From NCBI GenBank assembly GCA_964550845.1, contig CAZKAD010000002.1, forward strand, positions 11,377-75,376: 64,000 bases of DNA. The letters are read 5' to 3'. This stretch comes from an uncultured Gammaproteobacteria bacterium. Its GTDB lineage: Bacteria > Patescibacteriota > Patescibacteriia > Magasanikbacterales > UBA922. Below are positions 1,425 through 54,285 of this stretch, one piece after another (position 1 is the first letter of the stretch; each line of letters opens with the position of its first letter). Under the pieces are notes generated by a model, which was given only the letters and a program-made list of their open reading frames with translations, did not search any database and was not told where the DNA came from. Made by a program: the position numbers and the translations under genes.

Positions 1425-1446
1425 TCATTGTCAAGACTTTTTGAAG

Positions 1447-3005: not shown

Positions 3006-3282
3006 CTTTTCTTTCGGGAGAAAAGTCTTTTTTACGAACTTGACAAGTTTGAACTTGTGTTTTCTTCGAATATCGATCCCAAATTTCAGGCGGACAATCC
3101 TTTTTCGAGAGAGAAGATCTTACGGAATCAGTCAATTTGACTGAATATTCTCCAGCAGAAAGAAATTGTGTATTTTGCTCTTTCATCAGTCGGATCATCG
3201 TCTGACGAATTTTCGTCTCTTTCGCTTGAAGGGCGGCAATTTTTTGTTTCAATTGATACCAATCGCGAAGGAGATCGCTCAT
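2956..3282 (-). CDS. Hypothetical protein (charged, coiled-coil-like)
   Basis: ATG at 3280-3282 fused to the repeat core (GGTTAAAATG). The 3' end overlaps the kinase 5' end by ~30-50 nt in another frame. Confidence 0.45.
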   Translation of the reverse strand: MSDLLRDWYQLKQKIAALQAKETKIRQTMIRLMKEQNTQFLSAGEYSVKLTDSVRSSLSKKDCPPEIWDRYSKKTQVQTCQVRKKDFSPERKDDNGSSEDESDRNTNR

Positions 3283-3308
3283 TTTAACCAGTCCAAGAGA
3301 CGTTTAAT
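3283..3308 (+). repeat. Single degenerate GTTTAACC-hairpin unit fused to the ATG of gene 2956-3282
   Basis: TTAACCAGTCCAAGAGACGTTTAAT. Confidence 0.5.
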
Positions 3309-3321
3309 TCCAATCGAATTT

Positions 3322-6279: not shown

Positions 6280-6345
6280 TCTTGATGGATTGATTCTTGA
6301 TGGATTGATTCTTGATGGATTGATTCTTGATGGATTGAGAATGAT
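6280..6345. repeat. 15-bp tandem repeat (cttgatggattgatt) x4 immediately 5' of the ATG of gene 5713-6279
   Basis: Direct reading. Confidence 0.85.
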
Positions 6346-6385
6346 TTGAAAGTTATTATTTCTAAAACATAACAATTAAGAAGTC

Positions 6386-6427
6386 AATTTTTACATTGAA
6401 TATTGAATATTGAATATTGAATATTGA
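6386..6427. repeat. 8-bp tandem repeat (attgaata) x5 in the divergent promoter region
   Basis: attgaatattgaatattgaatattgaatattgaat. Confidence 0.85.
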
Positions 6428-6481
6428 ATTTTATCATACAAGAAAATTGATCTCCCTTCATTTGGAAATAAAAGAAAAGGA

Positions 6482-7879
6482 ATGTCAACTGAAGGGGAAA
6501 AAGAGAATGTCGAAGAAATTAAAATTCCCGAAGACGAATCAAAGATTGACGATGAAAAGATCGAAGAAGAGAAGGTTAATGATGAAAATTCGGAGAAACA
6601 TTATTCCGATTTGAAATCGGCTATCTTGAAAGGACATAATGTTTTTCTCACTGGTCCCGGAGGAACAGGTAAAAGTTACCTCATTCGGCGTCTGGTCAAA
6701 GAACTTGCCACTAATGCATACTATCAAAATATTGCTCTGACCGCAACTACTGGAGTGGCAGCTGAAAATATTCAAGGATGTACTCTTCATTCATGGGCTG
6801 GGATCGGAATTGGTAATCGATCTTATGATTATTACACAACTCGACTTCAAAAAGATGAAAACAAACGAGAATCGTGGACAAAGTGCAATCTTCTCATTAT
6901 TGACGAAGTTTCGATGATGGGAAAGAAATTGTTCCATTTACTCGACCACATCGGAAAGGTACTTCGAAGATCAATTCGTCCATTTGGAGGAATTCAACTA
7001 ATTTTTTGTGGGGATATGTGTCAACTTCCTCCAGTTGAAGATGAATATTGTTTTACTTCAGGATTGTTTGATAAATGTCAATTTTATTTTATCAAACTCA
7101 CTCATCCATGGAGATTTGTATCAGACTTGGAATATTTTCAGCTTTTGTTGAGAGTTCGACTTGGTGAGCAAACTCCACAAGATATTGCTCGTCTTGAAAC
7201 GAGAAAATGCTCGATGTTTCGAGACTTGGGAAATGAAGAAGGTGCTCTTCGTCCAACTCGCCTCTTTTCACGAAAAATGGATGTTCAAGAAATGAACATT
7301 GAAGAATTGAATAAATTGCCTGATCAAGAATATCATTATCAATCACATGATTCACTGATTCAGAAAAATCAAAAAGTCAAAATTAATCCTGAATATTACG
7401 AACAATTAATGGACAATCAACATCATCGTTTGACTCGATTGAAAAAAGGTGCACAAGTCATGTTAACTCGAAATATTTCGATTGAGCGAGGTTTAATTAA
7501 TGGATCACGAGGAGTGGTACTCGAATGTCATGATTCAACTGTGATGGTCAAGTTTCGAAAATGCGAATATTTAGTCACACCTTCTACCGTTGAGTATGAA
7601 GATGAAAATTGTAAATATCGACGTGTACTGATGCCTCTTATTCTTGCCTGGAGCATGACCATTCACAAATCTCAATCGGCAACTCTTGATTATGTGATTG
7701 CCGATCTTGGAACAAGTTTATTCTCGAAAAATATGGGTTACGTGGTCTTATCAAGATGTCGTTCTCTTGATTCGATTTTTCTGAATAATTTATTGCCCGA
7801 ACGAATTGAATGTGATCCATTGGCAAAAGAATTTGAGAAAAAGATTGATCGACAACTCGAGAAACAAAAGACGAGTTAA
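6482..7879 (+). CDS. PIF1-like 5'-3' DNA helicase (SF1B)
   Basis: Walker A LTGPGGTGKSYL, Walker B IIDEVSMM, and PIF1-like C-terminal motifs. AAAATTGA at 6443-6450 (-39). Confidence 0.85.
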   Translation: MSTEGEKENVEEIKIPEDESKIDDEKIEEEKVNDENSEKHYSDLKSAILKGHNVFLTGPGGTGKSYLIRRLVKELATNAYYQNIALTATTGVAAENIQGCTLHSWAGIGIGNRSYDYYTTRLQKDENKRESWTKCNLLIIDEVSMMGKKLFHLLDHIGKVLRRSIRPFGGIQLIFCGDMCQLPPVEDEYCFTSGLFDKCQFYFIKLTHPWRFVSDLEYFQLLLRVRLGEQTPQDIARLETRKCSMFRDLGNEEGALRPTRLFSRKMDVQEMNIEELNKLPDQEYHYQSHDSLIQKNQKVKINPEYYEQLMDNQHHRLTRLKKGAQVMLTRNISIERGLINGSRGVVLECHDSTVMVKFRKCEYLVTPSTVEYEDENCKYRRVLMPLILAWSMTIHKSQSATLDYVIADLGTSLFSKNMGYVVLSRCRSLDSIFLNNLLPERIECDPLAKEFEKKIDRQLEKQKTS

Positions 7880-7922
7880 ACTTGCACAGGATTAGTTAAA
7901 CATCTCTCTTCTTGGATAAAGA

Positions 7923-8285
7923 ATGGAGACTTTTCAAACTTGTTTTAATCAATGTTCACTTTCGGCTGACAGTTTGACTGAATTACTTTCAATTGATTCA
8001 AATCAATTCGAAGTTTTGAAAGTCCACGAATGGACTGTCAATTTGTCAAAAACATCAGTTAAACTAAAATGTCAGTCAATTGAATTGTATTGGAACTATT
8101 CAATCGAAGAAGTTGAAATTTTTATTTTCTTTGAACTACTTGCTTTACAGGCACAAATTAAAAGATATTCGAGTCAGTTTCTTCTCTCTTCATCAAGCAA
8201 TTTTTCGGGAGATGCGTCTCTCTCCTCTTCCGGAAGTTCATTTTGCCTCGTCACGTCTTCAACAGAAGAATCACTGTCTCTGTAA
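7923..8285 (+). CDS. Doubtful hypothetical ORF
   Basis: Its 3' end overlaps minus-strand ORF 8174-8689 by ~110 nt. No recognisable motifs. Confidence 0.2.
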   Translation: METFQTCFNQCSLSADSLTELLSIDSNQFEVLKVHEWTVNLSKTSVKLKCQSIELYWNYSIEEVEIFIFFELLALQAQIKRYSSQFLLSSSSNFSGDASLSSSGSSFCLVTSSTEESLSL

Positions 8286-8689
8286 TCAGGATCTTGATCA
8301 TAATCATTTCTTGGATCTTCATCGTCATGACAAAAATCGTCATCTTTGTGTTCAAGCCCATATTGACGAGCTTGATTGAAAGTTTTCTGATCAATCTTCA
8401 ATTCAAGTGAAAAATTAGTCAAAGAAAGTTCCCTGTTGTTCGGTTCGCGAATGAAACATTCAGGACAAAGATCAAAATCGCATTCAACACAGGAAAACAT
8501 TCCGTAAATCTTTTCGGTTCTGTTGATGGAGCGAATTAATAGGTAATCACGTTGACAGCAGTCGCAAATTCGGTACCAAATACTTGACGAATGAGTCGAA
8601 GGGCATTGAATTCGATCAACGTTGAAGAAGAATTTATGTGGATGATTTGGGTAATTGTACAAAGTGGGGGAAATTGTATGAGTTTCCAT
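8174..8689 (-). CDS. Cys-rich (zinc-finger-like) protein with acidic tail
   Basis: CDCC...CVEC...CPEC cluster, acidic C-terminus. ATG fused to the repeat array (GGTTAAATGG). Confidence 0.45.
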   Translation of the reverse strand: METHTISPTLYNYPNHPHKFFFNVDRIQCPSTHSSSIWYRICDCCQRDYLLIRSINRTEKIYGMFSCVECDFDLCPECFIREPNNRELSLTNFSLELKIDQKTFNQARQYGLEHKDDDFCHDDEDPRNDYDQDPDYRDSDSSVEDVTRQNELPEEERDASPEKLLDEERRN

Positions 8690-8870
8690 TTAACCAGTCT
8701 CGAAAAGACGTTTAACCAGTCTCGAAAAGACGTTTAACCAGTCTCGAAAAGACGTTTAACAAGTCTCAAAGAGACGTTTAATTAATTCAAAGAACGTTGT
8801 GGAAATAATATTCTCCGAAAAGAATATCATTTTTAACCAATTCAAAAAGTCTTGAAGAGACGTTAAATTA
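8690..8870 (+). repeat. Tandem array of 22-bp units CCAGTCTCGAAAAGACGTTTAA x4, plus one degenerate distal copy
   Basis: Direct reading. The last unit supplies the ATG context of gene 8174-8689 (GGTTAAATGG on the minus strand). Confidence 0.9.
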
Positions 8871-9159
8871 AAATTAGTCGAATTATATCTTCCTCTAAAA
8901 TTTGATCTGCTTCAAATATAGCTGTCCTTAACAGCTGAATAAACCAAGTACGAATAACAATCAATCCTTCTTCCGATAAAACGACTTCAATTTTTGACTG
9001 TTTATCAAATAAAACAAGAGTTAATCCATGTGTCCGATCTTCAATTTGATGACTGCTAAACAATTCGCTCTTTTTGGCTTCATTTACAAGCTTTTCGAAC
9101 GAAATTGCTAAAAAGAGGGAATTTTGAAATGACTCTTGTTTTTGCTGAACAAGGTCCAT
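8863..9159 (-). CDS. Hypothetical protein
   Basis: AAAATTGA on its own strand at -51 (9210-9217). Confidence 0.45.
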   Translation of the reverse strand: MDLVQQKQESFQNSLFLAISFEKLVNEAKKSELFSSHQIEDRTHGLTLVLFDKQSKIEVVLSEEGLIVIRTWFIQLLRTAIFEADQILEEDIIRLILI

Positions 9160-9274
9160 GATAAACTTCCTTTAGTTGATTAAGACGATTTTAAGATTGA
9201 AAAAAATAATCAATTTTGCTTCATCATTACAAAATTGATTTTTACTTTGTGATATTGGTTCGAAAAATAAACTA

Positions 9275-9682
9275 ATGAAGTTTCAAACTGTCTACGGAGT
9301 TTTAATCTCAGAAACAGATTTGTTATCTTCTGTATCTCCGAAGAATGAGAGCAAATATCATCTTTCAATAGCTCAACTTCAGCCAATATTTAATCGGCGC
9401 GATTCGATCGGTGATGCAACTATAGAAAAATATTTTCCGGGTTTGCTTCATTTGATCAAAGAATGGGAACTTCGTTTACTTCCGGCACCAAACTATATGT
9501 GTCCTCAAAATCGGCCACATTATGTTTTCGGTCTCTTCTCAGAGAATATTAACTTTCATATTTGCCCAACAGAAGAAATGAAACAAACATTAGTGATGTT
9601 GAAGAAATATTTCAATATCAATCAGGAATGTAAATATTTTTACTTTAATCCGAAGGCGTTTAACCACTTCAATAAGTCTTGA
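9275..9682 (+). CDS. Hypothetical protein
   Basis: AAAATTGA at -37. The last 10 codons are encoded by a GTTTAACC-hairpin repeat unit. Confidence 0.5.
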   Translation: MKFQTVYGVLISETDLLSSVSPKNESKYHLSIAQLQPIFNRRDSIGDATIEKYFPGLLHLIKEWELRLLPAPNYMCPQNRPHYVFGLFSENINFHICPTEEMKQTLVMLKKYFNINQECKYFYFNPKAFNHFNKS

Positions 9683-9695
9683 AGATACGTTTAAG
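9657..9695 (+). repeat. GTTTAACC-hairpin unit overlapping the 3' end of CDS 9275-9682 and leading into the ATG at 9701
   Basis: GGCGTTTAACCACTTCAATAAGTCTTGAAGATACGTTTAAG. Confidence 0.6.
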
Positions 9696-9700
9696 TAAAA

Positions 9701-10297
9701 ATGATTTTTTCTCTCTGCGGAGATGAAAAATTCAAAGCTCCCGACATTTTCGTCAAAAAAGATTCATCAATGTTGTTCTATTTGATTGAACGTGGATCTC
9801 GAAAGATGCTCATTTCACTTGAGTCTGCAAATCAGGAACTACTTGATATTTTCCATCTCTTCTTTTCGAATAGCAGAAGAAAAACCCTGATTTCGGAGGC
9901 AAAAGATGTTTCTGGAAAATACTTCCATCTTTATTCTCGTACATTTCTCGAGGATGGACAAAGAACAGATGAATTTCATCTTTTCTTTGATGATGTGAGC
10001 GATCATCCTCAACGACAGTGGGGTAATCAAATTCCAGGATTAAATACCTACCAAAAAACATTTTTCTGGGAACTTTACATCCGAGGACCAATTTCTCAAA
10101 TTGTTAAGTTGTCTCCTCAAGAGATGAACGTGCCTGTTCCATCTCCCTTCTTAACACAGCAATCAAGCTATCGAAAGGAACCTGTGCATTCTTCAACGAA
10201 AAAGCAAGATTATTTGCCTTATGGAGATACTCTTTCGATGCTTACCTTAAGATCTCCAGATCAAAGAAGAGTGGTTCGAATTCGACCAAGAGCATAG
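9701..10297 (+). CDS. Hypothetical protein
   Basis: Start context GTTTAAGTAAAAATGATTTT. Confidence 0.5.
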   Translation: MIFSLCGDEKFKAPDIFVKKDSSMLFYLIERGSRKMLISLESANQELLDIFHLFFSNSRRKTLISEAKDVSGKYFHLYSRTFLEDGQRTDEFHLFFDDVSDHPQRQWGNQIPGLNTYQKTFFWELYIRGPISQIVKLSPQEMNVPVPSPFLTQQSSYRKEPVHSSTKKQDYLPYGDTLSMLTLRSPDQRRVVRIRPRA

Positions 10298-10305
10298 TTA
10301 GAAAT

Positions 10306-10334
10306 ATTCCTTTCTTTTCGAAGAAAGAAATTAA
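10306..10334. terminator. Palindrome CTTTCTT-TTCGAA-GAAAG between convergent genes
   Basis: Direct reading. Confidence 0.45.
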
Positions 10335-10340
10335 TTATCA

Positions 10341-12203: not shown

Positions 12204-12255
12204 TTCTTTGTTAAAAAAAATTGATATTGTTTAATTTTTATTTAAAGTAACTAAA

Positions 12256-15099: not shown

Positions 15100-15102
15100 A
15101 GT

Positions 15103-15125
15103 ATTTTCTCTCCTCGAAAGGAGAT
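15103..15125. terminator. Palindrome TCTCC-TCGAAA-GGAGA between the D5 stop and the convergent small gene
   Basis: Direct reading. Confidence 0.45.
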
Positions 15126-15129
15126 AAAA

Positions 15130-19707: not shown

Positions 19708-21066
19708 ATGAAGAGATACCTCACGAATGAGGAAAAAGAAGACTTCATTCAAAGTCTTCCTGTACCATCATTTTTTAAAGCCGAGATTCGTGCTCATCAC
19801 CTAAAAAAAGTTAGAGATATGTTTTTTCCACAACTTGAAAGAAAAGTGTATCCCGAAACTATCCCTAAAATCAAAGAGACGATATGTAAGATTTATTTTC
19901 GTTCTCTGGCTGAACCTGGTAGTCCAGTTGGTCTTTGGGCGAGTCAGACCATGGAAACTTTGACTCAAAACAATTTGAGTTCTTTTCATACATCAGGTTT
20001 AGAAAAAAATATTTCAGCAGGTCTCTCTCGAATTACTGAATTGTATAACGTCAGTCAATCGCCAAAAATTGTCAGCTTTCATTTCGTTCCTCGGCAAAAG
20101 TTTTCTTCTGTTAAAGAGCTTAAAAAGAATATTCGACTTCCATCAGTCTTTTTTCGAGATCTAATTCGAAGACCTGTGATTCAAAAGCAGAAACCGGAAG
20201 CTTGGGAACATCAATTTGCATTTTTGTTTGAACAACCGATTCAAACTGAAGAATGGAGTGCAACCTTTTATCTTGATACCATTTTAATGATCAAAAACGG
20301 ATTGTCTCTGGAATATATTGTAAATAAAATTGCTTCTCAAATTGGATCTCTCCAATTTCGATTTCGCCCTCATGTTAACCCCCCAGTCTTGAAAGTCATT
20401 GTTGATACAAGTAATCTCGAGACAAATGCACAGTTTAGCTTAGGAAAATCGGTTGAAGAAGAATATATTTACAAGATCGTATTAGCAAATTTAGAAAAGA
20501 TTCATATCTCCGGAGTTCCTGGCGTTGAAGCTGCATATTTCAAAGAAACGAATGGTGAATGGTCATATGAAGGTAATGGAGGATCTTTGATTTCACTCTT
20601 ATCACATCAAGATGCAGATCCCTATCAAACGAAAAACGATAATATGTGGGACATTTTCGATTGTCTCGGAGTTGAGGCAACAACACAATTTTTAGTTGAA
20701 GAATTGACACGAGTAATGTGTGAAAACGATTCTTTTATTCACCCTGCACATATTTCATTGATTGCAAGAAATATTACACAAGATGGATATCCAATGGCAA
20801 TTAATCGTCATGGTATGACGCTTGAAAGATATCAACCGTTGTCGAAGATTTCATTTGAGGAATTTATCAAAAACTTGGTACAATCTGTCTATCAATCTGA
20901 AGTTGATCGTACAGCAACGATTGATGCTTGTGTCATGACAGGTAAAATTCCTCCAGTTGGAACAGGTATGTCAAAGATATACGTTGATGTTGGTAAACTT
21001 GAGAAAGAAATTCAAATAAATAAGGTTGTAAGTTCATCCGAGTCTCAACAATTAATGTACTTCTAA
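19708..21066 (+). CDS. RNA polymerase largest subunit, C-terminal half, encoded as a stand-alone gene
   Basis: Trigger-loop-like AEPGSPVGLWASQTMETLTQNNLSSFHTSG, DCLGVEATTQFLVEELTRVM (GIEAAR region), AINRHGMT, and C-terminal GKIPPVGTGMSKIY. AAAATTGA at 19667-19674 (-34). Confidence 0.85.
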   Translation: MKRYLTNEEKEDFIQSLPVPSFFKAEIRAHHLKKVRDMFFPQLERKVYPETIPKIKETICKIYFRSLAEPGSPVGLWASQTMETLTQNNLSSFHTSGLEKNISAGLSRITELYNVSQSPKIVSFHFVPRQKFSSVKELKKNIRLPSVFFRDLIRRPVIQKQKPEAWEHQFAFLFEQPIQTEEWSATFYLDTILMIKNGLSLEYIVNKIASQIGSLQFRFRPHVNPPVLKVIVDTSNLETNAQFSLGKSVEEEYIYKIVLANLEKIHISGVPGVEAAYFKETNGEWSYEGNGGSLISLLSHQDADPYQTKNDNMWDIFDCLGVEATTQFLVEELTRVMCENDSFIHPAHISLIARNITQDGYPMAINRHGMTLERYQPLSKISFEEFIKNLVQSVYQSEVDRTATIDACVMTGKIPPVGTGMSKIYVDVGKLEKEIQINKVVSSSESQQLMYF

Positions 21067-21246
21067 CCAGTCTTAAAGAGACGTTTAAAACATTGAAAAT
21101 TATCTCTCTTTTCGAAGAGAGATAATAAATTTGACCTGGATATAAAGATTATTCAATAAAATTATTGTGTAAATGTATTTGTTGCGGGAAATATTTAGGG
21201 GCAAAATCATGATGATTTGTATTTAAAAATAATTGTTATTTTAAAA

Positions 21247-21918
21247 ATGGCCGAAGAGAAAATAAATATAATGAATATAACAAAAGGTCTCCATTTTGAC
21301 GAAGGCTATATCAACTGGCAATTAAATAGGGTACTTTTTCTCATTAATTTAATGGGACGTGATTTCTTTCAGGGAAAGAAAATGCTCGAGCTCGGATCTT
21401 ATCAAGGTGGAATTACTCAAATGTTTCATAATTTAGGAGCGAATATAACTGGTGTAGAGGGATCAAAGAAAAATTTGGAGTTTGCTAGAACTAAATATCC
21501 GCATCTGACATTTATCGAAGGAGATTGTGATGATACAACTTGGAGATATGACGAAAAATATGATATCATTATTCATTGGGGATTATTGTATCATCTTAAA
21601 ACTCCCAAAGAATCGATATTGAATTGTATAGCCCATTGTGATATTTTATGTTTAAAGACTCTTGTTATTGATAAAACTATTCAAGAAGTTAATTTTGTTA
21701 ATGAAGACAATGTTCATAAGCCGGATCAGGCACTGAACGGTACGGGATCTCGTCCCACAGCATCCTATATCGAACAAATATTGACAGATTCTGGAACTAT
21801 GTGGACACGTTATGATAATACAGAACTTAATTCCAAATATCAACCTTGTTATTCAGCTGCTGACAAAAATACCGGTGGTACATATAGACGCTTTTGGGTA
21901 GTACACACACGTAAGTAA
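21247..21918 (+). CDS. Class I SAM-dependent methyltransferase (substrate unknown)
   Basis: Motif I LELGSYQGG, acidic end of beta-2 (GVEGS), motif II FIEGDCDD, motif III DIIIHWGLLYHL. Start set at first ATG (TTTAAAAATGG); track start is TTG. Confidence 0.6.
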   Translation: MAEEKINIMNITKGLHFDEGYINWQLNRVLFLINLMGRDFFQGKKMLELGSYQGGITQMFHNLGANITGVEGSKKNLEFARTKYPHLTFIEGDCDDTTWRYDEKYDIIIHWGLLYHLKTPKESILNCIAHCDILCLKTLVIDKTIQEVNFVNEDNVHKPDQALNGTGSRPTASYIEQILTDSGTMWTRYDNTELNSKYQPCYSAADKNTGGTYRRFWVVHTRK

Positions 21919-21975
21919 CAATCCAAAGGGATGTTTAACCGCTTTGACTGATATAATAATCTCGAAAAAATGATC

Positions 21976-38906: not shown

Positions 38907-38945
38907 TCAAATCATTTCAATATTCTTTTCCTTTTGAGGAAAAGA

Positions 38946-39740
38946 TTAACCATCAATTTCCATTGGTTTCAAGGTCCTTTGGGGCGGGTTCAACTCGGGT
39001 GATGCGGAAGGTGAGGGAAGTCGATAATTTTCATGATAGAATTTAGATACATTTCGATCATTCCAGTTTTCCGGAGCAATGTGATAAGCATTCAAAAGAT
39101 TGGAAATTTCAAAATAGCTAAGAGGTTCTCTTATTCGAAGAACTTTTACATTTTCAAAGAAAAGTTCAATTGGATAATTAAATGCATCAGATGAAAGTCG
39201 AAGCATACTCTTATTCAGTTGTTCTGCTGACGTATCAACTGTCCGACAAAGATGAATGAATTCTGCTATAATTTCAGTCTTCGGATCATTTAATTTCTGC
39301 TCAGTCTTTCGATAATGAAGTGCGTTACCTACACTTCTTGATAAAATTTGAGACATTTGTTCAGCGGCGTACAATTTCATTTTAAATTCTTCAATATCCT
39401 TTTCAAGTGAATTTTTCGAAATCACGAGATTATCTTGAACAAAGATGAATACAACTCCCTGGCTGGCAAGTTGAGATGCAAAATTGTAGCCAAGTTCTCG
39501 ATTACGTGAATATCTATCTACAGAAATACAAACGAATAAACCATGTATAATATTTACTTTACTCAACAACGGTGGAAGTTGTCGGAATGCCGAAGCAGCT
39601 TCGGCGATCACTGAAATCTCCATCTTCAACTCAGGGAAATGACTACAAACCCATTCTCGGCAGATCTTTTCTTGAGCATCTAAACTCTTTCCAAGTAATT
39701 GATTTCTGGTTGAAACACGCGTGTAAATGACACATTGCAT
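38946..39740 (-). CDS. Serine recombinase (resolvase/invertase catalytic domain)
   Basis: N-terminal VIYTRVSTRNQLLGKSLDAQ (catalytic Ser) and downstream VDRYSRN motif. First ATG used (MQCVIY); the track start is TTG. Confidence 0.8.
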   Translation of the reverse strand: MQCVIYTRVSTRNQLLGKSLDAQEKICREWVCSHFPELKMEISVIAEAASAFRQLPPLLSKVNIIHGLFVCISVDRYSRNRELGYNFASQLASQGVVFIFVQDNLVISKNSLEKDIEEFKMKLYAAEQMSQILSRSVGNALHYRKTEQKLNDPKTEIIAEFIHLCRTVDTSAEQLNKSMLRLSSDAFNYPIELFFENVKVLRIREPLSYFEISNLLNAYHIAPENWNDRNVSKFYHENYRLPSPSASPELNPPQRTLKPMEIDG

Positions 39741-39777
39741 GTTCAATCAACGAAGGATGTTCCACCCAACGAAGGAT

Positions 39778-40377: not shown

Positions 40378-40793
40378 GAGTCATTCAAAGCTCTCCATTT
40401 TTTCTCATGAAAAATCCATCGAATTGTTAGAATTAGATAAATGCTTCGAAAAATTGACATCAATGTAAGAATGTAATCTCGTGTAAATTCTCCGGTAAAC
40501 ATCCAAAGATCTACATAAAAAGCTATCTCAACTATACCCGCGATAATTAATGGAGTTGCTGCCCATTTCGGATATCTTTTTAACAAAACTAAATGAATTA
40601 TAAACACAAATATCAGAATGAATGCCCAGACGTAGTGAAGAACAATCAAGATGGATGAAATGTTTGTATAAGCAAGTAATTGCGCCAATGTAAAATGAAA
40701 TAGTGCATTGACTAAAACAAATGAGACCCAGAGGCCGAAATAATAAAATACAAAAAGATACAATTGAATATCTTCGAATTGAACCGTAAGCAT
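40353..40793 (-). CDS. Multi-pass membrane protein
   Basis: Four hydrophobic helices. Convergent 25-nt overlap with 40033-40377. Confidence 0.45.
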   Translation of the reverse strand: MLTVQFEDIQLYLFVFYYFGLWVSFVLVNALFHFTLAQLLAYTNISSILIVLHYVWAFILIFVFIIHLVLLKRYPKWAATPLIIAGIVEIAFYVDLWMFTGEFTRDYILTLMSIFRSIYLILTIRWIFHEKKWRALNDSQSSRNSI

Positions 40794-40835
40794 TTTGAAA
40801 ATAAAAGTAACTTTAAAAAGTCACTTTTATTAGAA

Positions 40836-41948
40836 ATGGCGTTGGCTGGAAATTATGCGCGAGCAATTTTGATTGACAGTGGATTCCGCAATCGAGAAAA
40901 ATATCCGCTCCAAGGCGATTTTGTTTTGATTCCAGAAGAAGGTAAAGGAAATAATGGAATTACCGAGCCTGTAGGATTGGGATATCCATTGCAAACAGGA
41001 CTCGTCAATACATACACCGCCGGTCCACCTTCTTATATTGAACTCCAAAGTGCAATTGTAGCTTCTTTTCCCGAAAATGTTTTGCTCAATTGTCAAATTG
41101 AAATTCTAGTCGGAACAACGGCTGTGTCGAGAGGATCGGCAAAAGTTATCGCATTTGGGACTGTCTCTCCGATCGTACGCATCTACTTTGATGATCCGAT
41201 TCCAGGAGCAGTTAACGGAGATACGGTAATTATCCGACAATTGGCAACATCGAAACCTCCTCATCGTCATGTCTTGACTGCTGGATCAAGCGTTGGAGAT
41301 ACAACTTTGACTTTGATTGGAGGATCATCCAAAACCAATTATTATGTCGGAATGTACTTTGGAGTCTTGGGTGCAACCCAAAAATACAAAATTAGCGCAT
41401 ATAATGCAACGACACAAGTGATTACATTTGCTCCTCCTTTATCTGCAATCTTATCAATTGGAAATATTCTTGAGATTTATCAAATTGAAGATAATAATTC
41501 TGGATTGTCAAAATCTGGTCATGTGATTGGAGGAATGTTTAATTATGAAATTCGTCTCGATTGGATTAATATTCCAACAGTTTCTTTGTTTAAAGCCGAA
41601 TCTTCATCTCTCGCGAAAAAGATTACCGAATTCCCTTACATTTTAGTTGAGTTTCGTAATGATCATGGATCGACCGATGCCGTTCAAACGAATAATAGGA
41701 ACGCAAAAGGATCAACATTTGTAATTCCGGTCGATGATCGCTCGACTGGATCGGGAAATTTTATTACACTTCGAGGATCAAATTCAGTTGTGCATATGCT
41801 TGATTTGAACGGAAAGATTCGATTTACTATTCGTGTTCCTTCGGGAGACATTGTTTATTTCGATGAGACATATGAACTCTCTTCTCTTCAAGTTTCAAAT
41901 CCCGATCTTCAAATTTCGGCTCATTTCACGGTGAGAAGAATTCATTAA
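40836..41948 (+). CDS. Hypothetical beta-rich protein (possible structural)
   Basis: First ATG (MALAGNYARA); the track start is TTG. The TAA stop lies inside the repeat core CATTAAATG. Confidence 0.5.
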   Translation: MALAGNYARAILIDSGFRNREKYPLQGDFVLIPEEGKGNNGITEPVGLGYPLQTGLVNTYTAGPPSYIELQSAIVASFPENVLLNCQIEILVGTTAVSRGSAKVIAFGTVSPIVRIYFDDPIPGAVNGDTVIIRQLATSKPPHRHVLTAGSSVGDTTLTLIGGSSKTNYYVGMYFGVLGATQKYKISAYNATTQVITFAPPLSAILSIGNILEIYQIEDNNSGLSKSGHVIGGMFNYEIRLDWINIPTVSLFKAESSSLAKKITEFPYILVEFRNDHGSTDAVQTNNRNAKGSTFVIPVDDRSTGSGNFITLRGSNSVVHMLDLNGKIRFTIRVPSGDIVYFDETYELSSLQVSNPDLQISAHFTVRRIH

Positions 41949-41987
41949 ATGTCCGAAAGGATTAAATGTCCTTCTGGGATTAAAACT
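41943..41987 (+). repeat. Three ATTAAAT-hairpin units between convergent genes; both stop codons lie inside units
   Basis: CATTAAATGTCCGAAAGGATTAAATGTCCTTCTGGGATTAAAAC. Confidence 0.6.
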
Positions 41988-43374
41988 CTTTCATTGATAC
42001 AAATAAATGATCAAGAATTTTGTTTGCAACTCGATATCCCGAACGTAAAGCGCCTTCCATGTATCCATAAAAGACTGGATCAGTGTGTTCGCCTGCAATG
42101 TAAGGAGATGTACTCTTTTGATAATATTCAACAAATTTCATCTGCCCAGGAGGAATATAAGAATATCCTCCTTCAATCAAGGGATTTTGATTCCAATTTT
42201 CAGTATAAGAATACTTTGTCCAATAGGGACAAAGTCTTTGAATATCTTGTGATTCTTTGAGGTCGGAATAAAAGTTGACTAACACTCGGTCATTTTTATT
42301 CATTTCACTGAAAGGAAAATAATCACCTCGATTCTCGGTCGCTTCCCAAATTTCTCCTTGAGGAAGTGCTAAAACGTTTGGCGATCGAGAAAATCGAATC
42401 CAGTCTCGGTGACCATAGATATATAATGTTTTAATAACTGGACCAATTGGCAACGCCGGTATAGATAATCCAGAAATTTTATGATATTGAGTCGGTGGAA
42501 TGGCAAGAATGAGGTAATCATAACTAACTACAATCTCTTTTCCTTCAAAGTCAAAAGTACATTTCTTTTCATGTTCATTGACGGCTTTGAGTTTGTGGAG
42601 AAGACGGACAAAGCTACGTTGTAATAGTTTTTCGACCATAAATAAATTACCTTCAGCACAACGATAAACTTGTTCAGTGTTCCAGAAACTTTTTCCATCT
42701 AAGTTAGGAGAACCACCTTTAACCTGTGTTAAAATAGAGAGATAACTTTGTTGACTTGGATCTGCAAGATTATCACATTGAAATTGTTTCTTAATGTATT
42801 CTTTTCCAAGATTCGACAATTCACATCGTTCAAGTTTATCTCCGAGGGATAAAGTATCTGGCATGTTCCACGGCTCGAATGGATTTGAAAGTTCTTTGCT
42901 ATCTTCAGCAAGCATATCTCGAAACTTTTTAATATCTTGTTCAATTTGCTTTTCTTCTTCCTTTGATAAAGCTTTGTCATTCAAATAAAGATTGTTTTTG
43001 CATCCTTGGGCAGCATAATAGGTTTCAGGTGTAACTAGAGTGAAAGAAAGTTTCAATCGATGAGCAAGAGTCAACCACATGGCATGATTTGATCCGATTA
43101 ATTCAGCTCCAAGTTCAACTTGAGGAACATCATAAATCGAAGCTGTCTTAACTCTTCCACCAACTCTTTCGGCAGCTTCATAAACGTGAACATTTGGAAG
43201 AGCAGACAAAAAGTAGGCAGCAGCTGCTCCAGCTAGACCGGCTCCGACAATGACAATCTTTGGTATAGTTCCGAGACGATTTGCTTTCTCTTGAACGTGA
43301 TCGAGATAACTGAGGTCAATTTTAGCCATCGGGGATATTTTCCCTGGCTCTCGAAGTGAATACCATTTATTCAT
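41980..43374 (-). CDS. Flavin-containing amine oxidase (MAO/PAO/LAAO family)
   Basis: Dinucleotide-binding IVIVGAGLAGAAAAYFL, YEAAERVGGRVKT, and C-terminal YIAGEHTD...GYMEGALRSGYRVANKIL. An 8-bp-stem palindrome abuts the ATG. Confidence 0.8.
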   Translation of the reverse strand: MNKWYSLREPGKISPMAKIDLSYLDHVQEKANRLGTIPKIVIVGAGLAGAAAAYFLSALPNVHVYEAAERVGGRVKTASIYDVPQVELGAELIGSNHAMWLTLAHRLKLSFTLVTPETYYAAQGCKNNLYLNDKALSKEEEKQIEQDIKKFRDMLAEDSKELSNPFEPWNMPDTLSLGDKLERCELSNLGKEYIKKQFQCDNLADPSQQSYLSILTQVKGGSPNLDGKSFWNTEQVYRCAEGNLFMVEKLLQRSFVRLLHKLKAVNEHEKKCTFDFEGKEIVVSYDYLILAIPPTQYHKISGLSIPALPIGPVIKTLYIYGHRDWIRFSRSPNVLALPQGEIWEATENRGDYFPFSEMNKNDRVLVNFYSDLKESQDIQRLCPYWTKYSYTENWNQNPLIEGGYSYIPPGQMKFVEYYQKSTSPYIAGEHTDPVFYGYMEGALRSGYRVANKILDHLFVSMKEF

Positions 43375-43442: not shown

Positions 43443-43799
43443 TTACCATCGTTCAACGATGATAATTAAACTTTCTTCTTTTTTGTCGAGATTTCCTCGA
43501 GCCGATCCAATTTCCATTGCTGTTACAATGGTTTCAAACGTTTTTCTCAACATCTCTTTTGCCTGATTTTTGGTTGTTCGGTCAAAGAATGAAGAGTGAA
43601 GAATGTTATGAAATAAAGGAAATACAGTTTGCAATTGGCATTGCAATGAAGATTTCTTTTCAATTAACAGAGCTCGAAGAGCAAGGAAAAGTTTTTCTTG
43701 TAATTCAAGATCGAGACATTCGAGAGCTCGTGAACATTCATGTGAGAGCATTTTCCTTTGTTCTCGACATCGAGTAATTTCATTCGAAACCGAAAGCAT
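43443..43799 (-). CDS. Hypothetical protein
   Basis: ATG preceded by three GTTTAACC units. Confidence 0.4.
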   Translation of the reverse strand: MLSVSNEITRCREQRKMLSHECSRALECLDLELQEKLFLALRALLIEKKSSLQCQLQTVFPLFHNILHSSFFDRTTKNQAKEMLRKTFETIVTAMEIGSARGNLDKKEESLIIIVERW

Positions 43800-43821: not shown

Positions 43822-43876
43822 AGTTTAACCAATCCTCTGGACGTTTAACCAGTCTTGGGGATGTTTAACCACTTTA
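43822..43876 (+). repeat. Three tandem GTTTAACC units (20-bp period) upstream of gene 43443-43799
   Basis: GTTTAACCAATCCTCTGGACGTTTAACCAGTCTTGGGGATGTTTAACC. Confidence 0.7.
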
Positions 43877-44203: not shown

Positions 44204-44262
44204 GAGGTTTAACTAGTCCTAAAAGGACGTTTAACCTCCACTCGAAACGTCTTAATCCTCTC
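44204..44262 (+). repeat. GTTTAAC-AGTCCT-AAA-AGGAC-GTTTAAC hairpin unit at the 3' end of gene 44252-45733
   Basis: Direct reading. Preceded by gcttgaaat x3 at 44158-44186. Confidence 0.6.
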
Positions 44263-45733
44263 CGTCTTCCTCATCATCTTCCCGAATGATTTCGTCATTT
44301 GGAATTTCCATGTCAGATCGTGTGCCAGTTCGAAGACGCAATTCTCCATTTTTCAGCTCCCAGACTTCATTGACTCGAGTGATATCTCCCATTACATCAA
44401 GTAAATTCTTGCTGACATCACTCTCGCCATATTCTCGGTTCCATTCGCATATATTCGCGTTGACCAGGTTACACAAAAACGAGAAGTAATATCTCTGATA
44501 TTTCATTTGATATGTACCTAGAATTTGTTTTTCATTCAGTACTGCCTGAGACATCTTATGAGTAATGATAGCTTTGAGTTGTTGACGGAAAGTTAACAAA
44601 TTGACAGACAAATCATCTTCATATCCATTAAATACATTAAGGAAGTTTTCGGTATGACCAGATGAGCACATTCCATCGATATCGAGTATTTCCTGATGGA
44701 GACGTCGAAGAAGTTCTTCTTTAAATTTCGAACTGTGTATCTTCATCAAAATGTACACCAAGCTGTCCAGGACAGTCATTCCATACACTGTTGTCGGATC
44801 AATTTGAACACGTTCGAGAAGTACATCATAAACTGCCTTATGTTCGGCAGGAATGGGAAGATGTTCTTTTAGATAACTCACTTTTTCAGGAATCGTGGAT
44901 GGACATTCTTTTTGCTCGAGTGCCCAGGTTTGAATCTTTCGTAGCACAGTTTCAAGAGCGCGAGCAATTTCTTCATCATGAGCGTTCTGTTGATCTTGAT
45001 AAACATTTTGTTCGTGATCTTTGAGTTCGCCAAAAGACATTTCTTCTTTGAATTTCAACACATCTGGATTGCGGCCAAATTTTCTTAACATTACATCAAG
45101 CAAATTTGACCTCTCTTTAAAATCTCTTGTCCGTCGAGACCAATCAAGAAAATGTTGAGTAATTTCTTTCTCAGGAAGATCTCCAATCAGTTGTTCATCG
45201 TTAAACATCTGGAGAAGGAAGTGCTTTTTGGCAGGCGAAAAACGATGAGTAAAGAAATGCTTCGCAATTGCTCGAATCGCATAAATATCGGCATAATGAA
45301 GATACATACTTTTTGGAATTGGATCTTCGGTTTCACTAATATGGGGGATCAATTTCTTTCCATACGAAGCGGCATCACTCTTTGAATGTTTGTAAAAGAC
45401 GTAAAGTTGCCGAAATAACCAATATCCAAGACCAAGAGCGATATAATGAGGACATTTATCATCCTCGATTGCAGCATGTACGTCTTTGAGCAGTTTTCCA
45501 AATGACTGTTGACGAATTTCTTTCATTTGTTCAAACATCATTGCATAAGGACTGTCTTTTTCTTCAGCAATTCTTTTCGCCTCATTGAAGATACGAAAAT
45601 GAGAAGGATCGGCAGAAATTTCAGTTTCGACTGCAGTATTGGCGATTTTACCGACACTTGGTTCAAGAGTGTTGAAAGCTTCTTCAATGAGAGCTTTCTT
45701 TTCTTCTTCGGTTAGATCTGCAAGCTTGGGCAT
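44252..45733 (-). CDS. Hypothetical protein (493 aa)
   Basis: Clean ATG. The stop is followed by a GTTTAAC-flanked hairpin. Confidence 0.55.
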   Translation of the reverse strand: MPKLADLTEEEKKALIEEAFNTLEPSVGKIANTAVETEISADPSHFRIFNEAKRIAEEKDSPYAMMFEQMKEIRQQSFGKLLKDVHAAIEDDKCPHYIALGLGYWLFRQLYVFYKHSKSDAASYGKKLIPHISETEDPIPKSMYLHYADIYAIRAIAKHFFTHRFSPAKKHFLLQMFNDEQLIGDLPEKEITQHFLDWSRRTRDFKERSNLLDVMLRKFGRNPDVLKFKEEMSFGELKDHEQNVYQDQQNAHDEEIARALETVLRKIQTWALEQKECPSTIPEKVSYLKEHLPIPAEHKAVYDVLLERVQIDPTTVYGMTVLDSLVYILMKIHSSKFKEELLRRLHQEILDIDGMCSSGHTENFLNVFNGYEDDLSVNLLTFRQQLKAIITHKMSQAVLNEKQILGTYQMKYQRYYFSFLCNLVNANICEWNREYGESDVSKNLLDVMGDITRVNEVWELKNGELRLRTGTRSDMEIPNDEIIREDDEEDGED

Positions 45734-49640: not shown

Positions 49641-49732
49641 CGATGGTACTTTTCCTTTGGACAAGAAAAATAATTTTTAACTAATGATGTAATTGATTTT
49701 TCTCTTCTCGAAAGAAGAGAAAAATAATCATC

Positions 49733-49868
49733 GTTTAAACGTCTCTTCGAGACTGGTTAAACGTCTCTTCGAGACTGGTTAAACGTCTCTTCGAGACTGG
49801 TTAAACGTCCTTATAGGACTCTTTGAAATGATTAAACGTCCTTATAGGACTCTTTGAAATGATTAAAT
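49733..49868 (+). repeat. Array of GTTTAAACGTCTCTTCGAGACTG x3 plus GTTAAACGTCCTTATAGGACTCTTTGAAATGAT x2; the TAA stop of gene 49863-50540 lies inside the last unit
   Basis: Direct reading. Hairpins GTCTC-TTC-GAGAC and GTCCT-TAT-AGGAC. Confidence 0.9.
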
Positions 49869-50540
49869 AAAAGCAGAAACAAGTGAAAATACTCTCGGGT
49901 CATACAAAGATTGTTGTTGAGAATCATACAATGTTCCTTCTCCAGATAAACTATGTGTAAGTAAGATATACAGTTTAAAATATCCATCAAAAGGCTCTAT
50001 TTTATCCGTCAGGCCCATTCGATGGAGGCGAGGAACATCTTTGTTTACATGATTATTCTCAAAGTTGAGAATTTTTAATAAGATTTGAAGATGATTTTTG
50101 TGTCCAGTCCAATCCAACGGGTCAATCAGATGAATTATTTTCTTTACATTCGTTTCTCTTGAAAACACTCTTTGATACATTGTAAAATTATTTACATGCA
50201 TTTCCTTCGCGTGAAGATGTTCGAGAAAATCACTGCGCGGAGAAAGTCGATTTTCTGCACTAAAAAATAACATGTAACAATGAAAATTGTCAGTCAAAGG
50301 AAGTTTATCATTAATGTGAATCGAGACGAAAAAGATGTAGTTTTGTTGATACAAGATTGATAATTGATCAAAAAGGGGTTGAAGATTTCGATCTCGAACA
50401 CGAAAGAGTGATACTAAAGTATTTGCATGTTTCGATTCAAAAGTAAAGAACTGCCGGCTCACTTGGCGAATAATAATCATTGCATAATTATGTGTAGTCA
50501 CATAATTATGAAGTTGTTTGACTCTATCTCGACGTGTCAT
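49863..50540 (-). CDS. Paralog family B protein (C-terminal SLYDPRVFSL motif)
   Basis: The C-terminus aligns with the DLYDPRLL family. Its TAA stop lies inside the terminal unit of the 5-unit repeat array. Confidence 0.5.
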   Translation of the reverse strand: MTRRDRVKQLHNYVTTHNYAMIIIRQVSRQFFTFESKHANTLVSLFRVRDRNLQPLFDQLSILYQQNYIFFVSIHINDKLPLTDNFHCYMLFFSAENRLSPRSDFLEHLHAKEMHVNNFTMYQRVFSRETNVKKIIHLIDPLDWTGHKNHLQILLKILNFENNHVNKDVPRLHRMGLTDKIEPFDGYFKLYILLTHSLSGEGTLYDSQQQSLYDPRVFSLVSAFI

Positions 50541-51067: not shown

Positions 51068-51113
51068 TCAAGTTTTTGTTTCAATGAAAAACTTTTAACC
51101 TTTTCATGGATGT

Positions 51114-51192
51114 AAATGTTTATCCAGTTCCGCAGAACGTTTATCCAGTTCCGCAGAACGTTTAATCAGTTCCGCAGAACGTTTAATTACCA
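51114..51192 (+). repeat. Tandem 21-bp units CAGTTCCGCAGAACGTTTAWC x3
   Basis: Direct reading; between the stop of 51187-51579 and the start of 50582-51067. Confidence 0.85.
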
Positions 51193-51579
51193 CCAACCTT
51201 CAACCAACCAATAATTCGATTTGTTTTTACCTTCTTGAGGAACTTCCTTCTGCATTCGCTCCGCTTCCCGTACTGATTCAATTGGTTGAGTTATTTCAAC
51301 GGGAGACATTTCGGCTAAAGCAGGAATTTCTTGATATTTCTTTTCGCGTAGTTGAAAATTGTACAATTCTTGTTGTGTCTTTTGATGTGCCTGATGTTCT
51401 AGTTCAAGATTTTTTGATGTATGTTCAAGTTCTTTTGTAAGTTTCTCACATTTGAGCTGCATTTCAGCAAGATTACGAATCAGTTCTTCATTTTTACGTC
51501 TCACAAAGGCATTTTCTTGAAGAAGGTTTTGGTTTTGAGCCATTACCTTTTGAGTTTTTTCACGAGAATATTGAGCCAT
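51187..51579 (-). CDS. Coiled-coil protein
   Basis: First ATG (MAQYSREK). Palindrome TTCTTTTGAAAAGAA abuts the ATG. The TAA stop lies inside TAATTAAACG of the array. Confidence 0.45.
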   Translation of the reverse strand: MAQYSREKTQKVMAQNQNLLQENAFVRRKNEELIRNLAEMQLKCEKLTKELEHTSKNLELEHQAHQKTQQELYNFQLREKKYQEIPALAEMSPVEITQPIESVREAERMQKEVPQEGKNKSNYWLVEGWW

Positions 51580-51653
51580 CTTTCTTTTCAAAAGAAAAAA
51601 CTGATTTTCTTTTGCGACTTCAATGGAGTGAAATCAAGTTTTTTGATCGAAGA

Positions 51654-52943: not shown

Positions 52944-53027
52944 TTTTTAACAAGTCCTTCAAGACGTTTAACCACTTCAGAGAGTCCCGAAGGATGTTTA
53001 ACCAATCTTGACGAAATCGTTTTAATC
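52944..53027 (+). repeat. Three degenerate GTTTAACC-hairpin units between convergent genes
   Basis: GTTTTTAACAAGTCCTTCAAGACGTTTAACCACTTCAGAGAGTCCCGAAGGATGTTTAACC...GTTTTAATC. Confidence 0.65.
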
Positions 53028-53610: not shown

Positions 53611-54285
53611 ATGGCAACCGATGGAGAAGACTATGAGTTTCTCATCGATGAATCGAAGTCGAGATTGCAGACCTTAAAAGCAGGTCTAGAAATTTATTCA
53701 AAAAAGTTCCCTGAAGATAAGAAAGGAATTGCAAGATTTCAAAGTTTGATTCGAAAAGAAGAAGATCGATATAACATCTATTCGATGTTCCAAGCTGCTG
53801 AACATGGAAGTATGCTCTCGTTTGCAAGCTCAGTATCAATCAATCATCAAATCAACGAACAAAATTTTGAATTAGTAAATTCAGACGAAATTCGTCAAAA
53901 ACTATCTCCACATGCTATTGAAGACGATATGTCAGAGTTTTCTTTTTTGATTTCTCCAAGAGCAGATGGACTCGTCAAAATTCCAATCGATCAAATTCTT
54001 CATGGAGGAAAAAACGTTCCTCTTGGTCAGAGAGTGATCAAAATGCCGAAAAATTTGGATCAAACTATTCGAACGGTAAGACAAAAATTAGCTGAAGAAA
54101 AAACACAGTTGAAAGATGTGTTCCCAAAAGAGGTTCACCCGACGAAGGAGGTTCACCCGACGAAGGAGGTTCACCCGACGAAGGAGGTTCACCCTGAAAA
54201 ACAACCAATCAAAAACACATTAGTTCAACCACCACCGAAAGGAATGGCAAAAAAAGTGATCATTGCAGAGCCAAAGAAAAAATGA
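53611..54285 (+). CDS. Hypothetical protein with KEVHPT x4 tandem repeat
   Basis: An 18-bp DNA repeat gaggttcacccgacgaag x4 at 54121-54195 is translated in frame. Confidence 0.5.
   Translation: MATDGEDYEFLIDESKSRLQTLKAGLEIYSKKFPEDKKGIARFQSLIRKEEDRYNIYSMFQAAEHGSMLSFASSVSINHQINEQNFELVNSDEIRQKLSPHAIEDDMSEFSFLISPRADGLVKIPIDQILHGGKNVPLGQRVIKMPKNLDQTIRTVRQKLAEEKTQLKDVFPKEVHPTKEVHPTKEVHPTKEVHPEKQPIKNTLVQPPPKGMAKKVIIAEPKKK

Follow-up and report, generated by a model that had tools for sequence, protein, structure and literature searches.

Do two tandem arrays of short palindromic units, far apart in one stretch of viral DNA, descend from a single composite array that was copied whole? The question was raised by a sequence-only reading of positions 11,377 to 75,376 of contig CAZKAD010000002.1, a stretch of 64,000 nucleotides that we call the window and in whose coordinates all positions below are given unless another contig is named. 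That reading saw in each array three short units followed by two long ones, and took the differing stems to have changed in concert under selection for structure. Our answer is a different one. The arrays, array 1 at 34343-34460 and array 2 at 49735-49862, are ordinary members of a lineage-specific family of hairpin mini-repeats, and of this family and its dynamics we are highly confident; the apparent common '3+2' design is a coincidence. To judge from its genes, the window comes from a divergent nucleocytoplasmic large DNA virus (NCLDV), an uncultivated giant virus. The interpretation of the family that we favour, and hold with slightly better than even confidence, is that its units are mini-repeats resembling repetitive extragenic palindromes (REPs), which sit at TTAA gene ends, expand locally and act as boundary hairpins.

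A unit consists of a conserved unpaired head, TTAAAC, a stem of 4-5 bp, a loop of 3-5 nt and a tail, TGG, the stem ends in the window lineage being GTC..GAC. Most of the variation is in the stem, head and tail being more conserved. Units are 17-23 nt long, with a long sub-form of 29-31 nt in which a 9-nt insert, TYYYTGAAN, stands ahead of the tail (the same hairpin followed by TYYYTGAANTGR), and head-to-head spacings are 17, 20-22 and 28-31 nt. The 64 kb hold about 31 units at about 19 loci. The string TTAAACGTC occurs 26 times against 0.6 expected, a number reached by none of 100 shuffles. A covariance model, R1, built from 16 gap-free 24-nt units (an earlier MAFFT alignment was dropped, its gaps having fallen within the 3' arm), recovers 34 units at E<=1, nearly all of them intergenic, at some 19 loci. 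Tandem Repeats Finder (TRF) reports six arrays of one grammar, four of them (8689-8781, 29150-29242, 43823-43871 and 51118-51185) beyond arrays 1 and 2. The long form is found at six independent loci of the window (1484, 2059, 8866, 34384/34413, 49802/49833 and 53000), four of these being single units, and at further sites in other strains. Rfam gave no match at gathering score anywhere in the window, and a CRISPR array was rejected as an identity for the repeats: the units are contiguous, with no spacers.

How do the two arrays look when dissected unit by unit? Array 2 is what the sequence-only reading said it was. Its unit lengths are 22, 22, 22, 31 and 31 nt: three identical short units (49735-49800, plus strand; TTAAAC GTCTC-TTC-GAGAC TGG) precede two identical long ones (49801-49862, plus strand; TTAAAC GTCCT-TAT-AGGAC TCTTTGAAATGA), and TRF finds period 22 over 49735-49809 and period 31 over 49801-49867, both at 100% matches. 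A partial terminal head, TTAAAT (49863-49868, plus strand), closes the array, and its TTA at 49863-49865, read on the opposite strand, is the TAA that ends gene 49863-50540(-). Array 1 is built otherwise. It has five heads and unit lengths of 20, 20, 29, 29 and 20 nt: two short units (34343-34382, plus strand; TTAAAC GTCT-TTC-GGAC TGG, with one U.G pair), two long ones (34383-34440, plus strand) in which the short-unit hairpin carries the tail TTTCTGAATTGG, and a variant unit, TTAAAC GTCTTTTAGTC CAA (34441-34460), after which a last head, TTAAATG, runs to 34467 on the plus strand and supplies the ATG at 34465. TRF places period 20 at 34343-34400 and period 29 at 34380-34452, with blocks 100% identical. 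Tandem arrays are thus real at both places, and the start codon behind array 1 and the stop codon behind array 2 are where they were said to be. The count of three short and two long units in array 1 had arisen by counting the first long unit twice; the order is short-short-long-long-short against short-short-short-long-long, and a global alignment offsets the long units by one. The stems do differ (GTCT/GGAC in array 1, GTCTC/GAGAC and GTCCT/AGGAC in array 2), and their uniformity within an array is explained by recent local amplification of one unit, as the complete identity of the blocks attests, instead of by concerted compensatory change.

Selection for pairing, the other half of that proposal, stands on firmer ground. 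Among 26 distinct units, 96.7% of stem cells pair, with double-sided changes in four of five pairs. None of 500 shuffles reaches the observed paired percentage, the number of double-change cells or the covariation score, and the count of pairs with a double change is reached by 14 of the 500; slid registers bring pairing down to 28-60%. An unbiased version of the test selected units on their 5' part only: GAC followed TTAAACGTC at 3-8 nt for 23 of its 26 occurrences (16 of 19 when identical sequences are counted once; background 5.4%), and AAC followed TTAAACGTT in six of six. A sister lineage, lineage 2, with 67% identity in Rpb2 and 75% in D5, follows this grammar but with ATC..GAT: its TTAAACATC heads number 37, and it has none of the TTAACGTC type (TTAAACGTC); the change from GTC..GAC to ATC..GAT is, on this comparison, a lineage-wide compensatory switch of the basal pair. 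That pairing of the stem is kept by compensatory change across loci is supported by these alignments. At the four outer pairs, read on the head strand, G.U outnumbers A.C by nine to one, which suggests that it is one strand of the stem that counts, be it RNA or single-stranded DNA, the events behind this ratio not being independent of one another. The wobble-bearing loci of the window, five of five, are sense to the gene that they abut.

Where do the units sit? Every unit or array has TTAA on both sides, and the bounding TTAA is very often the TAA stop of an adjacent gene, on either strand, or the TTAAATG context of a start. Since TTAA is its own reverse complement, it makes TAA available to genes from either side. 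A same-strand stop lies inside or right before the head at 8865, 41948, 51189 and 61032; the relative L016 (54989 and 57557) and the two lineage-2 arrays show this arrangement as well. The TTA of an opposing stop follows the 3' end of the array at 1424, 21066, 21918, 41982, 49865 and 61912. Four arrays end in a start codon, through TTAAATG or TTAAAATG (3282, 8689, 29242 and 34465). T-TAA accounts for 27 of the 72 stops in the window. That TAAATG might serve this virus generally as an initiator was considered and rejected, TTAAATG being seen 18 times against about 26 expected from base composition. The spacers that hold units are tandem, convergent and, once, divergent, and about 18 of 20 loci have a stop codon in the spacer that they occupy. 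Of the 71 3' flanks 16 hold units, and of the 69 5' flanks 9 do, a modest enrichment for the mini-repeats alone.

The mini-repeats share these spacers with two other signals. The first is a class of long pyrimidine/purine palindromes with TCGA or CGAA loops, which we call class 1 and which follow most genes, most convergent spacers included; examples among many are 10298-10340, 15100-15129, 29806-29862, 38907-38945, 49697-49724 and 34303-34329. (A table of perfect palindromes of at least 7 bp was set aside as too strict, having missed many imperfect long ones.) Compared with shuffles, the 48 nt after stops have a median folding z of -1.61, with 44% below -2, and the 48 nt before starts are no better than shuffles (medians -0.51 and -0.56). 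Because 3' flanks are more structured than 5' flanks, the data suggest that the virus obeys the 'hairpin rule' described for the 3'-end palindromes of Mimiviridae, Pithovirus and Marseilleviridae (PMC4402537, PMC5413956). The likeness lies in palindromes concentrated after stops in an AT-rich NCLDV, with long ones at most 3' ends. Palindromes under the hairpin rule are long and are not known to share sequence between genes; the mini-repeats, unlike them, are short-stemmed and tandem, with conserved flanks, and some stand upstream of ATGs with no 3' end in the spacer. The second signal is the octamer AAAATTGA, familiar as the Mimivirus early promoter element and also as part of an iridovirus promoter. 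It is strongly enriched in non-coding DNA, with 20 of 38 copies in that roughly 10% of the sequence (for example 34332-34339(-), 29081-29088(+), 6384-6391(-)/6443-6450(+) and 12217-12224(+)), and its usual layout is octamer, long palindrome, ATG. Tandem spacers that hold both palindrome classes run in the order stop, mini-repeat, AAAATTGA, long palindrome, ATG (21067-21216, 61801-61909 and 54989 in L016). The mini-repeats are the sole palindrome in spacers 1425-1537, 3283-3321, 41949-41979 and 51068-51186. Under the hairpin rule a polyadenylation site would lie in the hairpin; the inspected ends of short Logan contigs showed no poly(A) tail, and several of those ends lie inside a repeat array.

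A class-1 palindrome precedes each of the two arrays. The one upstream of array 2, TTTTTCTCTTC..GAAGAGAAAAA at 49697-49724, is kept in relatives without the array, and the gene on the other side (49863-50540(-), function not assigned) is conserved in relatives with none, three or five units. Ahead of array 1, the 5' module of the neighbouring F-box gene, 33563-34303(-), occupies 34303-34339 on the minus strand, with AAAATTGA at 34339-34332 and then the palindrome 34329-34303 adjoining the ATG. Behind array 1 lies gene 34465-35193(+), again with no function assigned. Its lineage-2 ortholog has an upstream array of its own, made of four ATC..GAT units, so that the position of array 1 is conserved and its unit sequences have been wholly turned over.

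The dynamics of the family are clearest among strain-level relatives, with 93-96% nucleotide identity and about 55 kb of pairwise alignment. Array 2, with three short and two long units in the window, has one short and two long in three independent assemblies (L012, L014 and L016, the neighbouring gene being 98.8% identical in L016) and is empty in L193, where the gene is 87% identical and the site reads ..GG TTAAAT AAAAGC, the head alone being present. Array 1 has five units in the window, three mutually different ones in L004, one in L194 (96% identical), and variants with an internal 8-nt duplication in L006 and L011. That duplication (GTCTTTCGGACTTTCGGAC) shows slippage at work inside units too, and hints at an origin for length variants such as the long form. 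Gain or loss of units accounts for 12-13 of 39 insertions or deletions of at least 8 nt, in a sequence of which units make up about 1.2%. At 54989 and 57557 a single unit right after a T-TAA stop is present in one strain and absent in another; the hairpin of the one inserted in L016 at 57557, 13 nt long, is identical to that of the unit at 61889. In lineage 2 a five-unit array stands at the T-TAA stop of a small open reading frame (ORF), and the orthologous site of the window, 36604, is empty; the ORF there, 36398-36604(+), encodes a hydrophobic, proline-rich protein of 68 amino acids that is conserved in lineage 2, where the array starts in its stop. The blocks of identical units and the range from zero to five copies among close strains show that arrays are lengthened by tandem duplication and shortened by deletion, both of them local.

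The interpretation that we favour builds on this behaviour. Units would first settle at the TTAA of a gene end, inserted there or copied from a different locus, and would then expand by replication slippage or unequal recombination. They would be transcribed within 3' or 5' untranslated regions and serve there as small boundary hairpins, each one dispensable by itself, that supplement or stand in for the long 3'-end palindromes, the hairpin being needed for this RNA role or for the element's own propagation. The RNA-boundary function is the more tentative part, and, reasoning as we do from sequence, we give it rather less than even confidence. The closest known counterparts are REPs, imperfect palindromes of 20-40 bp with a conserved unpaired tetranucleotide tag, GTAG or CGTC, which lie mainly downstream of ORFs, in unidirectional and convergent spacers, and are thought to be transcribed as RNA elements and to be possible mini-transposons (PMC3733652). 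Our units share with them a similar size, a small palindromic stem-loop, many intergenic copies mostly after ORFs, occasional intragenic copies and a tendency to cluster. A conserved unpaired end is present here as the head TTAAAC; the letters CGTC themselves stand there in the window lineage, but CATC does in the sister lineage. They differ in living in a giant virus of eukaryotes and not in a bacterial chromosome, in forming head-to-tail direct arrays and not inverted pairs, in having A/T-poor stems of only 4-5 bp, and in being bounded by TTAA. A Pfam scan of the roughly 70 ORFs of the window, out of a genome of some 220-260 kb, found no RAYT (HUH tyrosine) transposase.

Several observations weigh against this interpretation and should be set out together. 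At 4-5 bp the stems fall far short of the long palindromes in the hairpin-rule papers and would probably not suffice for an enzyme of the RNase III type, and no RNase III gene was seen among the same ORFs. That the units are transcribed, and where the 3' ends lie, are things that we infer. In tandem spacers six loci are sense and seven antisense, and a reader of single-stranded RNA flanks would miss the same motif in half of the loci; one wobble-bearing locus of lineage 2 (L017 905-938) is likewise antisense. Palindromes can be restored by intrastrand template switching, with no selection involved. Folded whole, array 1 does no better than its shuffles (z -0.19), though such whole-array folds are mostly inter-unit pairing and uninformative on single hairpins. 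Of three comparisons between an empty and a filled site, only that at 57557 gives a clean TTAA duplication, which is lacking at 54989 and, against lineage 2, at 36604. Orthologous unit positions are mostly not conserved between the lineages, and any function must be dispensable or modulatory, because arrays are absent without loss of the neighbouring gene. Copy-number differences in short-read assemblies could in part be repeat collapse. Collapse is not sufficient as an explanation, because neither the junctions in L193 and L194 nor the differing unit sequences can arise in that way.

What else might such units be? They could be sites read in double-stranded DNA, with a viral factor binding TGGTTAAAC, with or without the palindrome, to act upstream of genes as promoter or enhancer and downstream as roadblock terminator or insulator. 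Sal-box/TTF-I repeats, which flank rDNA units on both sides as roadblock terminators and insulators, offer a precedent. Head and tail are conserved above the stem, and the use of both orientations suits a double-stranded site. In the divergent spacer 34304-34464 only the array is left unused by the AAAATTGA-plus-palindrome module, so that the promoter of gene 34465 has to lie in the array or overlap it; the place of an array upstream of this gene is conserved in lineage 2, and four arrays end exactly in TTAAATG. The spacings of 20-22 and 29-31 nt are near two and three helical turns, but units of 17-18 nt break such phasing. Upstream-sense loci number only 4-6 of about 19, and units in convergent spacers need no promoter. 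A dimer site would conserve its sequence, yet the stem covaries, with G.U favoured over A.C on one strand. The arrays are dispensable, and no candidate binding protein was identified. A viral parallel might be sought in the family A repeats of the coccolithovirus EhV-86 (Wilson et al. 2005; Allen et al. 2006). The units described here differ from those repeats in occurring in both orientations, often at stops and in convergent spacers. Family A reportedly consists of short non-coding units that stand immediately before the start codons of many genes of this large algal virus and are interpreted as a promoter element; it is said to have a conserved nonamer without a hairpin and to be confined to positions upstream of genes in one region of the genome. 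Altogether, we consider a role as DNA-level sites improbable, though worth keeping in mind.

The second alternative, which we think about as improbable, is that the units are purely selfish mini-elements, mobilised in trans by a TTAA-specific piggyBac-like transposase or by a HUH/RAYT-like one that recognises a single-stranded hairpin. Much in the data is congenial to it. TTAA stands on both sides and single units are polymorphic at TTAA; the unit at 57557 in L016 shares its 13-nt hairpin with the one at 61889; only two or three young lineages have the family, and 67 kb of the next clade lack it; unit orientation is independent of the genes, arrays can be lost and one copy lies inside an ORF; and pairing on one strand with G.T tolerated is what a single-stranded DNA hairpin substrate would look like. 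Most REPs bear a conserved unpaired end tag, which in one super-family is literally CGTC (PMC3733652). Against these points, the 13-25 bp from one TTAA to the next are well below the size of any known transposon or MITE (a miniature transposable element with inverted repeats), and there are no inverted repeats besides the hairpin. The window encodes no HUH, piggyBac or other DDE transposase and has only a serine recombinase (38946-39746). Two of three filled sites lack the right-hand TTAA duplication, and slippage is the simpler explanation of identical neighbours. Transposons and MITEs of the piggyBac type target TTAA, duplicate it, span tens to hundreds of bp, carry terminal inverted repeats and have an autonomous partner; our units resemble them in the TTAA on both sides and in presence or absence at TTAA, with an apparent TTAA duplication at one filled site and none at the other two, and differ in an element of only 13-25 bp whose sole inverted repeat is the hairpin and near which no transposase is encoded. 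A lineage-specific, non-coding palindromic family that has invaded the intergenic DNA of an NCLDV and varies among close relatives is known from the MITE-like repeats of pithoviruses (PMC10664404). The units here, by comparison, are about 20 nt long, number 1-5 per locus and are welded to start or stop codons. Pithovirus repeats are said to be far larger, at about 150 bp, and to form kilobase-scale arrays.

With these two alternatives weighed, the duplication from which we set out, that of one composite array of three short and two long units whose copies then changed their stems in concert under selection on structure, can be judged very unlikely. It is true that short units precede long ones in both arrays, that pairing is conserved, and that the inserts are alike, each adding 9 nt and TTTCTGAATTGG and TCTTTGAAATGA being identical at 8 of 12 positions. 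The shared insert is uninformative about the ancestry of the arrays, however, because the long form is a sub-family character found at six loci; the two arrays are merely two of about 19 family loci, and another locus, at 30840 in the coordinates of the window, reads long-short-short in L004. The flanks are non-homologous save for the generic pyrimidine/purine palindrome. The composition of short and long units is unstable within the species, shifting by strain between none, three and five units for array 2 and one, three and five for array 1. The proposal is already contradicted. Least probable of all, the units might be dispersed replication origins or enhancers of the baculovirus hr or iteron type, a thought to which the dispersed arrays of imperfect palindromes and the ability of whole arrays (array 2 at z -3.6 to -5.2) to form long nested helices or structures like cruciforms lend some colour, but most loci are single units much shorter than hr repeats, helical phasing is upset by the units of 17-18 nt, the loci keep to start and stop codons, the loss of arrays has had no consequence and there is no associated AT-rich unwinding region.

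The remaining loci give a fuller picture of the family in this genome. Reading from the left end, three units at 1425-1527(-), the middle one of the long form, are antisense to both flanking plus-strand genes, and after the last comes a TTA, the stop codon of the A32 gene seen from the other strand. A degenerate long-form unit with an ATAAAC head lies in a convergent spacer (2031-2060(-)), and a single unit (3288-3309(-)) ends in TTAAAATG, the start of 2956-3282(-). The four-unit array of 22-nt units at 8694-8781(-) ends in the TTAAATG that starts gene 8174-8689(-); close by, a single long-form unit (8838-8869(-)) holds the TAA stop of ORF 8863-9159(-) in its head, TTTAAC, and a long-form-like unit (9673-9696(-)) overlaps the TGA stop of 9275-9682(+). 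Single units adjoin the stop (TTA) of the Rpb1-domain-5 gene 19708-21066(+) at 21067-21090(-) and the stop of 21217-21918(+) at 21918-21940(-), the latter having three units in L187. The four-unit array at 29150-29244(+), with the stem-loop GTTCT-TAA-AGAAC, ends in the TTAAATG that starts 29242-29805. That gene and 28455-29051 are diverged tandem paralogs, and the second of the pair, with the array in its leader, is absent from L004. A single unit at 30840-30862(+) is the one with three units in L004.

Further to the right, two TTAAAT-headed units of 17-18 nt (41946-41982(+)) fill an entire convergent spacer: the 31 nt of 41949-41979, between genes 40764-41948 and 41980-43374, are exactly two units, with both stops in the bounding TTAA, and L004 and L016 have three units there. 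An array of 2.5 units (43823-43871(-)) stands upstream of gene 43443-43799(-), L016 having one unit more, and a single unit (44213-44236(-)) lies 16-19 nt past the stop of gene 44252-45733(-). The three-unit array at 51123-51186(-), with GTTC-TGCG-GAAC, comes directly after the TAA stop of 51187-51591(-), and L016 has two units fewer. One long and one short unit share a convergent spacer at 52951-53003(-). Of the two single units near the right end, that at 61012-61035(-), in a convergent spacer, holds in its head the TAA stop of 61030-61800(-), and that at 61887-61912(+) is followed by the TTA that is the stop of 61910-62587(-). One further unit, 319-341(-), lies within the A32 ATPase ORF 129-1424, upstream of its Pfam-matched part (aa 195-334); either this is an intragenic copy or the true A32 start is further downstream. 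Units in the first 25 kb are nearly all on the minus strand regardless of gene strand, those between 29 and 42 kb are all on the plus strand, and the cumulative GC skew peaks near 28-30 kb. This regional bias may reflect replication, or it may be chance.

How far does the family reach beyond the window? A metagenome scan for three phased TGGTTAAAC heads returned 109 stretches, of which 80 were fetched; only seven loci (ERZ7245xx contigs and JACCDN010507572.1) hold family members, and most of the 80 were set aside as unrelated satellites that merely contain the 9-mer TGGTTAAAC. A scan of IMG/VR for the unit junction GACTGGTTAAACGTC gave 55 contigs with one match each, as many as chance could account for, and not a single array. 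Nor does the family occur in 67 kb of the wider uncultivated clade that shares about 50% identity in D5. The octamer AAAATTGA is nearly absent from that clade, with 1-3 copies per 23-kb locus, one of them upstream of D5, and many gene starts there have (A/T)TAAATG instead.

The virus itself is uncultivated. The window is compact, with 35% G+C and genes on both strands, and identical proteins are present in NCBI and in Logan contigs of up to 223-259 kb. Among its NCLDV hallmark genes are those for a D5-type primase-helicase with an AEP domain like that of ASFV C962R, Rpb2, SNF2, an A32 packaging ATPase, a PIF1 helicase, a methyltransferase, uracil-DNA glycosylase, the serine recombinase, thioredoxin, Rpb5, an Fpg glycosylase and an SNase nuclease, together with RING, F-box and kinase proteins; no tRNA genes were found in it. 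Homology searches with Rpb2 and D5 found no named cultured relative for either, and everything outside the wider clade is near 30-37% identity. Domain 5 of Rpb1 is a separate gene of 452 amino acids (19708-21066(+)), the largest subunit appearing to be split, an arrangement that recurs in lineage 2 (L017 1934-3274). In the wider clade, Hom_end_hint/intein domains (PF14890) interrupt the homologs of PIF1, Rpb2 and D5 (L191 5913-8279; proteins P0061, P0072, P0109 and P0113).

Strains differ in larger segments as well. A block of about 4 kb with the PIF1 helicase, at about 6500-10330, is replaced in L187 (2102-8061) by kinase, PRA-PH and collagen-like genes, and L004 has an additional 699-nt segment at window position 25526. 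There are also tandem repeats outside the family: perfect or near-perfect ones at 6274-6338, 6395-6429, 54130-54194 and 61573-61684, with 15-nt and 18/27-nt periods within ORFs and, between two divergent AAAATTGA motifs, five copies of ATTGAAT. The copy number of those at 6278, 6395 and 54156 varies between strains.

What, then, does the family mean for the virus? It belongs with REP- and MITE-like palindromic repeats and with the hairpin signals of giant viruses, and the features most worth following up are the welding of TTAA to start and stop codons and the hypervariability between strains. One lesson is general: local amplification in a larger family whose members covary can leave two arrays looking as if compensatory evolution had taken place between them. 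Another is a practical warning to annotators, for it is often the repeat that provides the start or the end of an ORF in this virus. If our reading of boundary mini-repeats holds, a giant-virus clade has its own REP-like family welded to start and stop codons through TTAA, the mini-repeats are the fastest-changing part of the genome between strains and a ready marker for strain typing, and nature has run an experiment on the effect of short boundary hairpins on viral transcription. A bolder version, which we think unlikely, is that an active viral system copies hairpins of about 20 nt into TTAA sites at gene ends, and that slippage of the arrays tunes individual genes among strains. Were that true, the units would be the smallest mobile elements known, mobilised perhaps by a single-strand hairpin-recognising or TTAA-specific enzyme encoded elsewhere, and the hypervariable 5' leaders and 3' ends would be a viral analogue of bacterial contingency loci.

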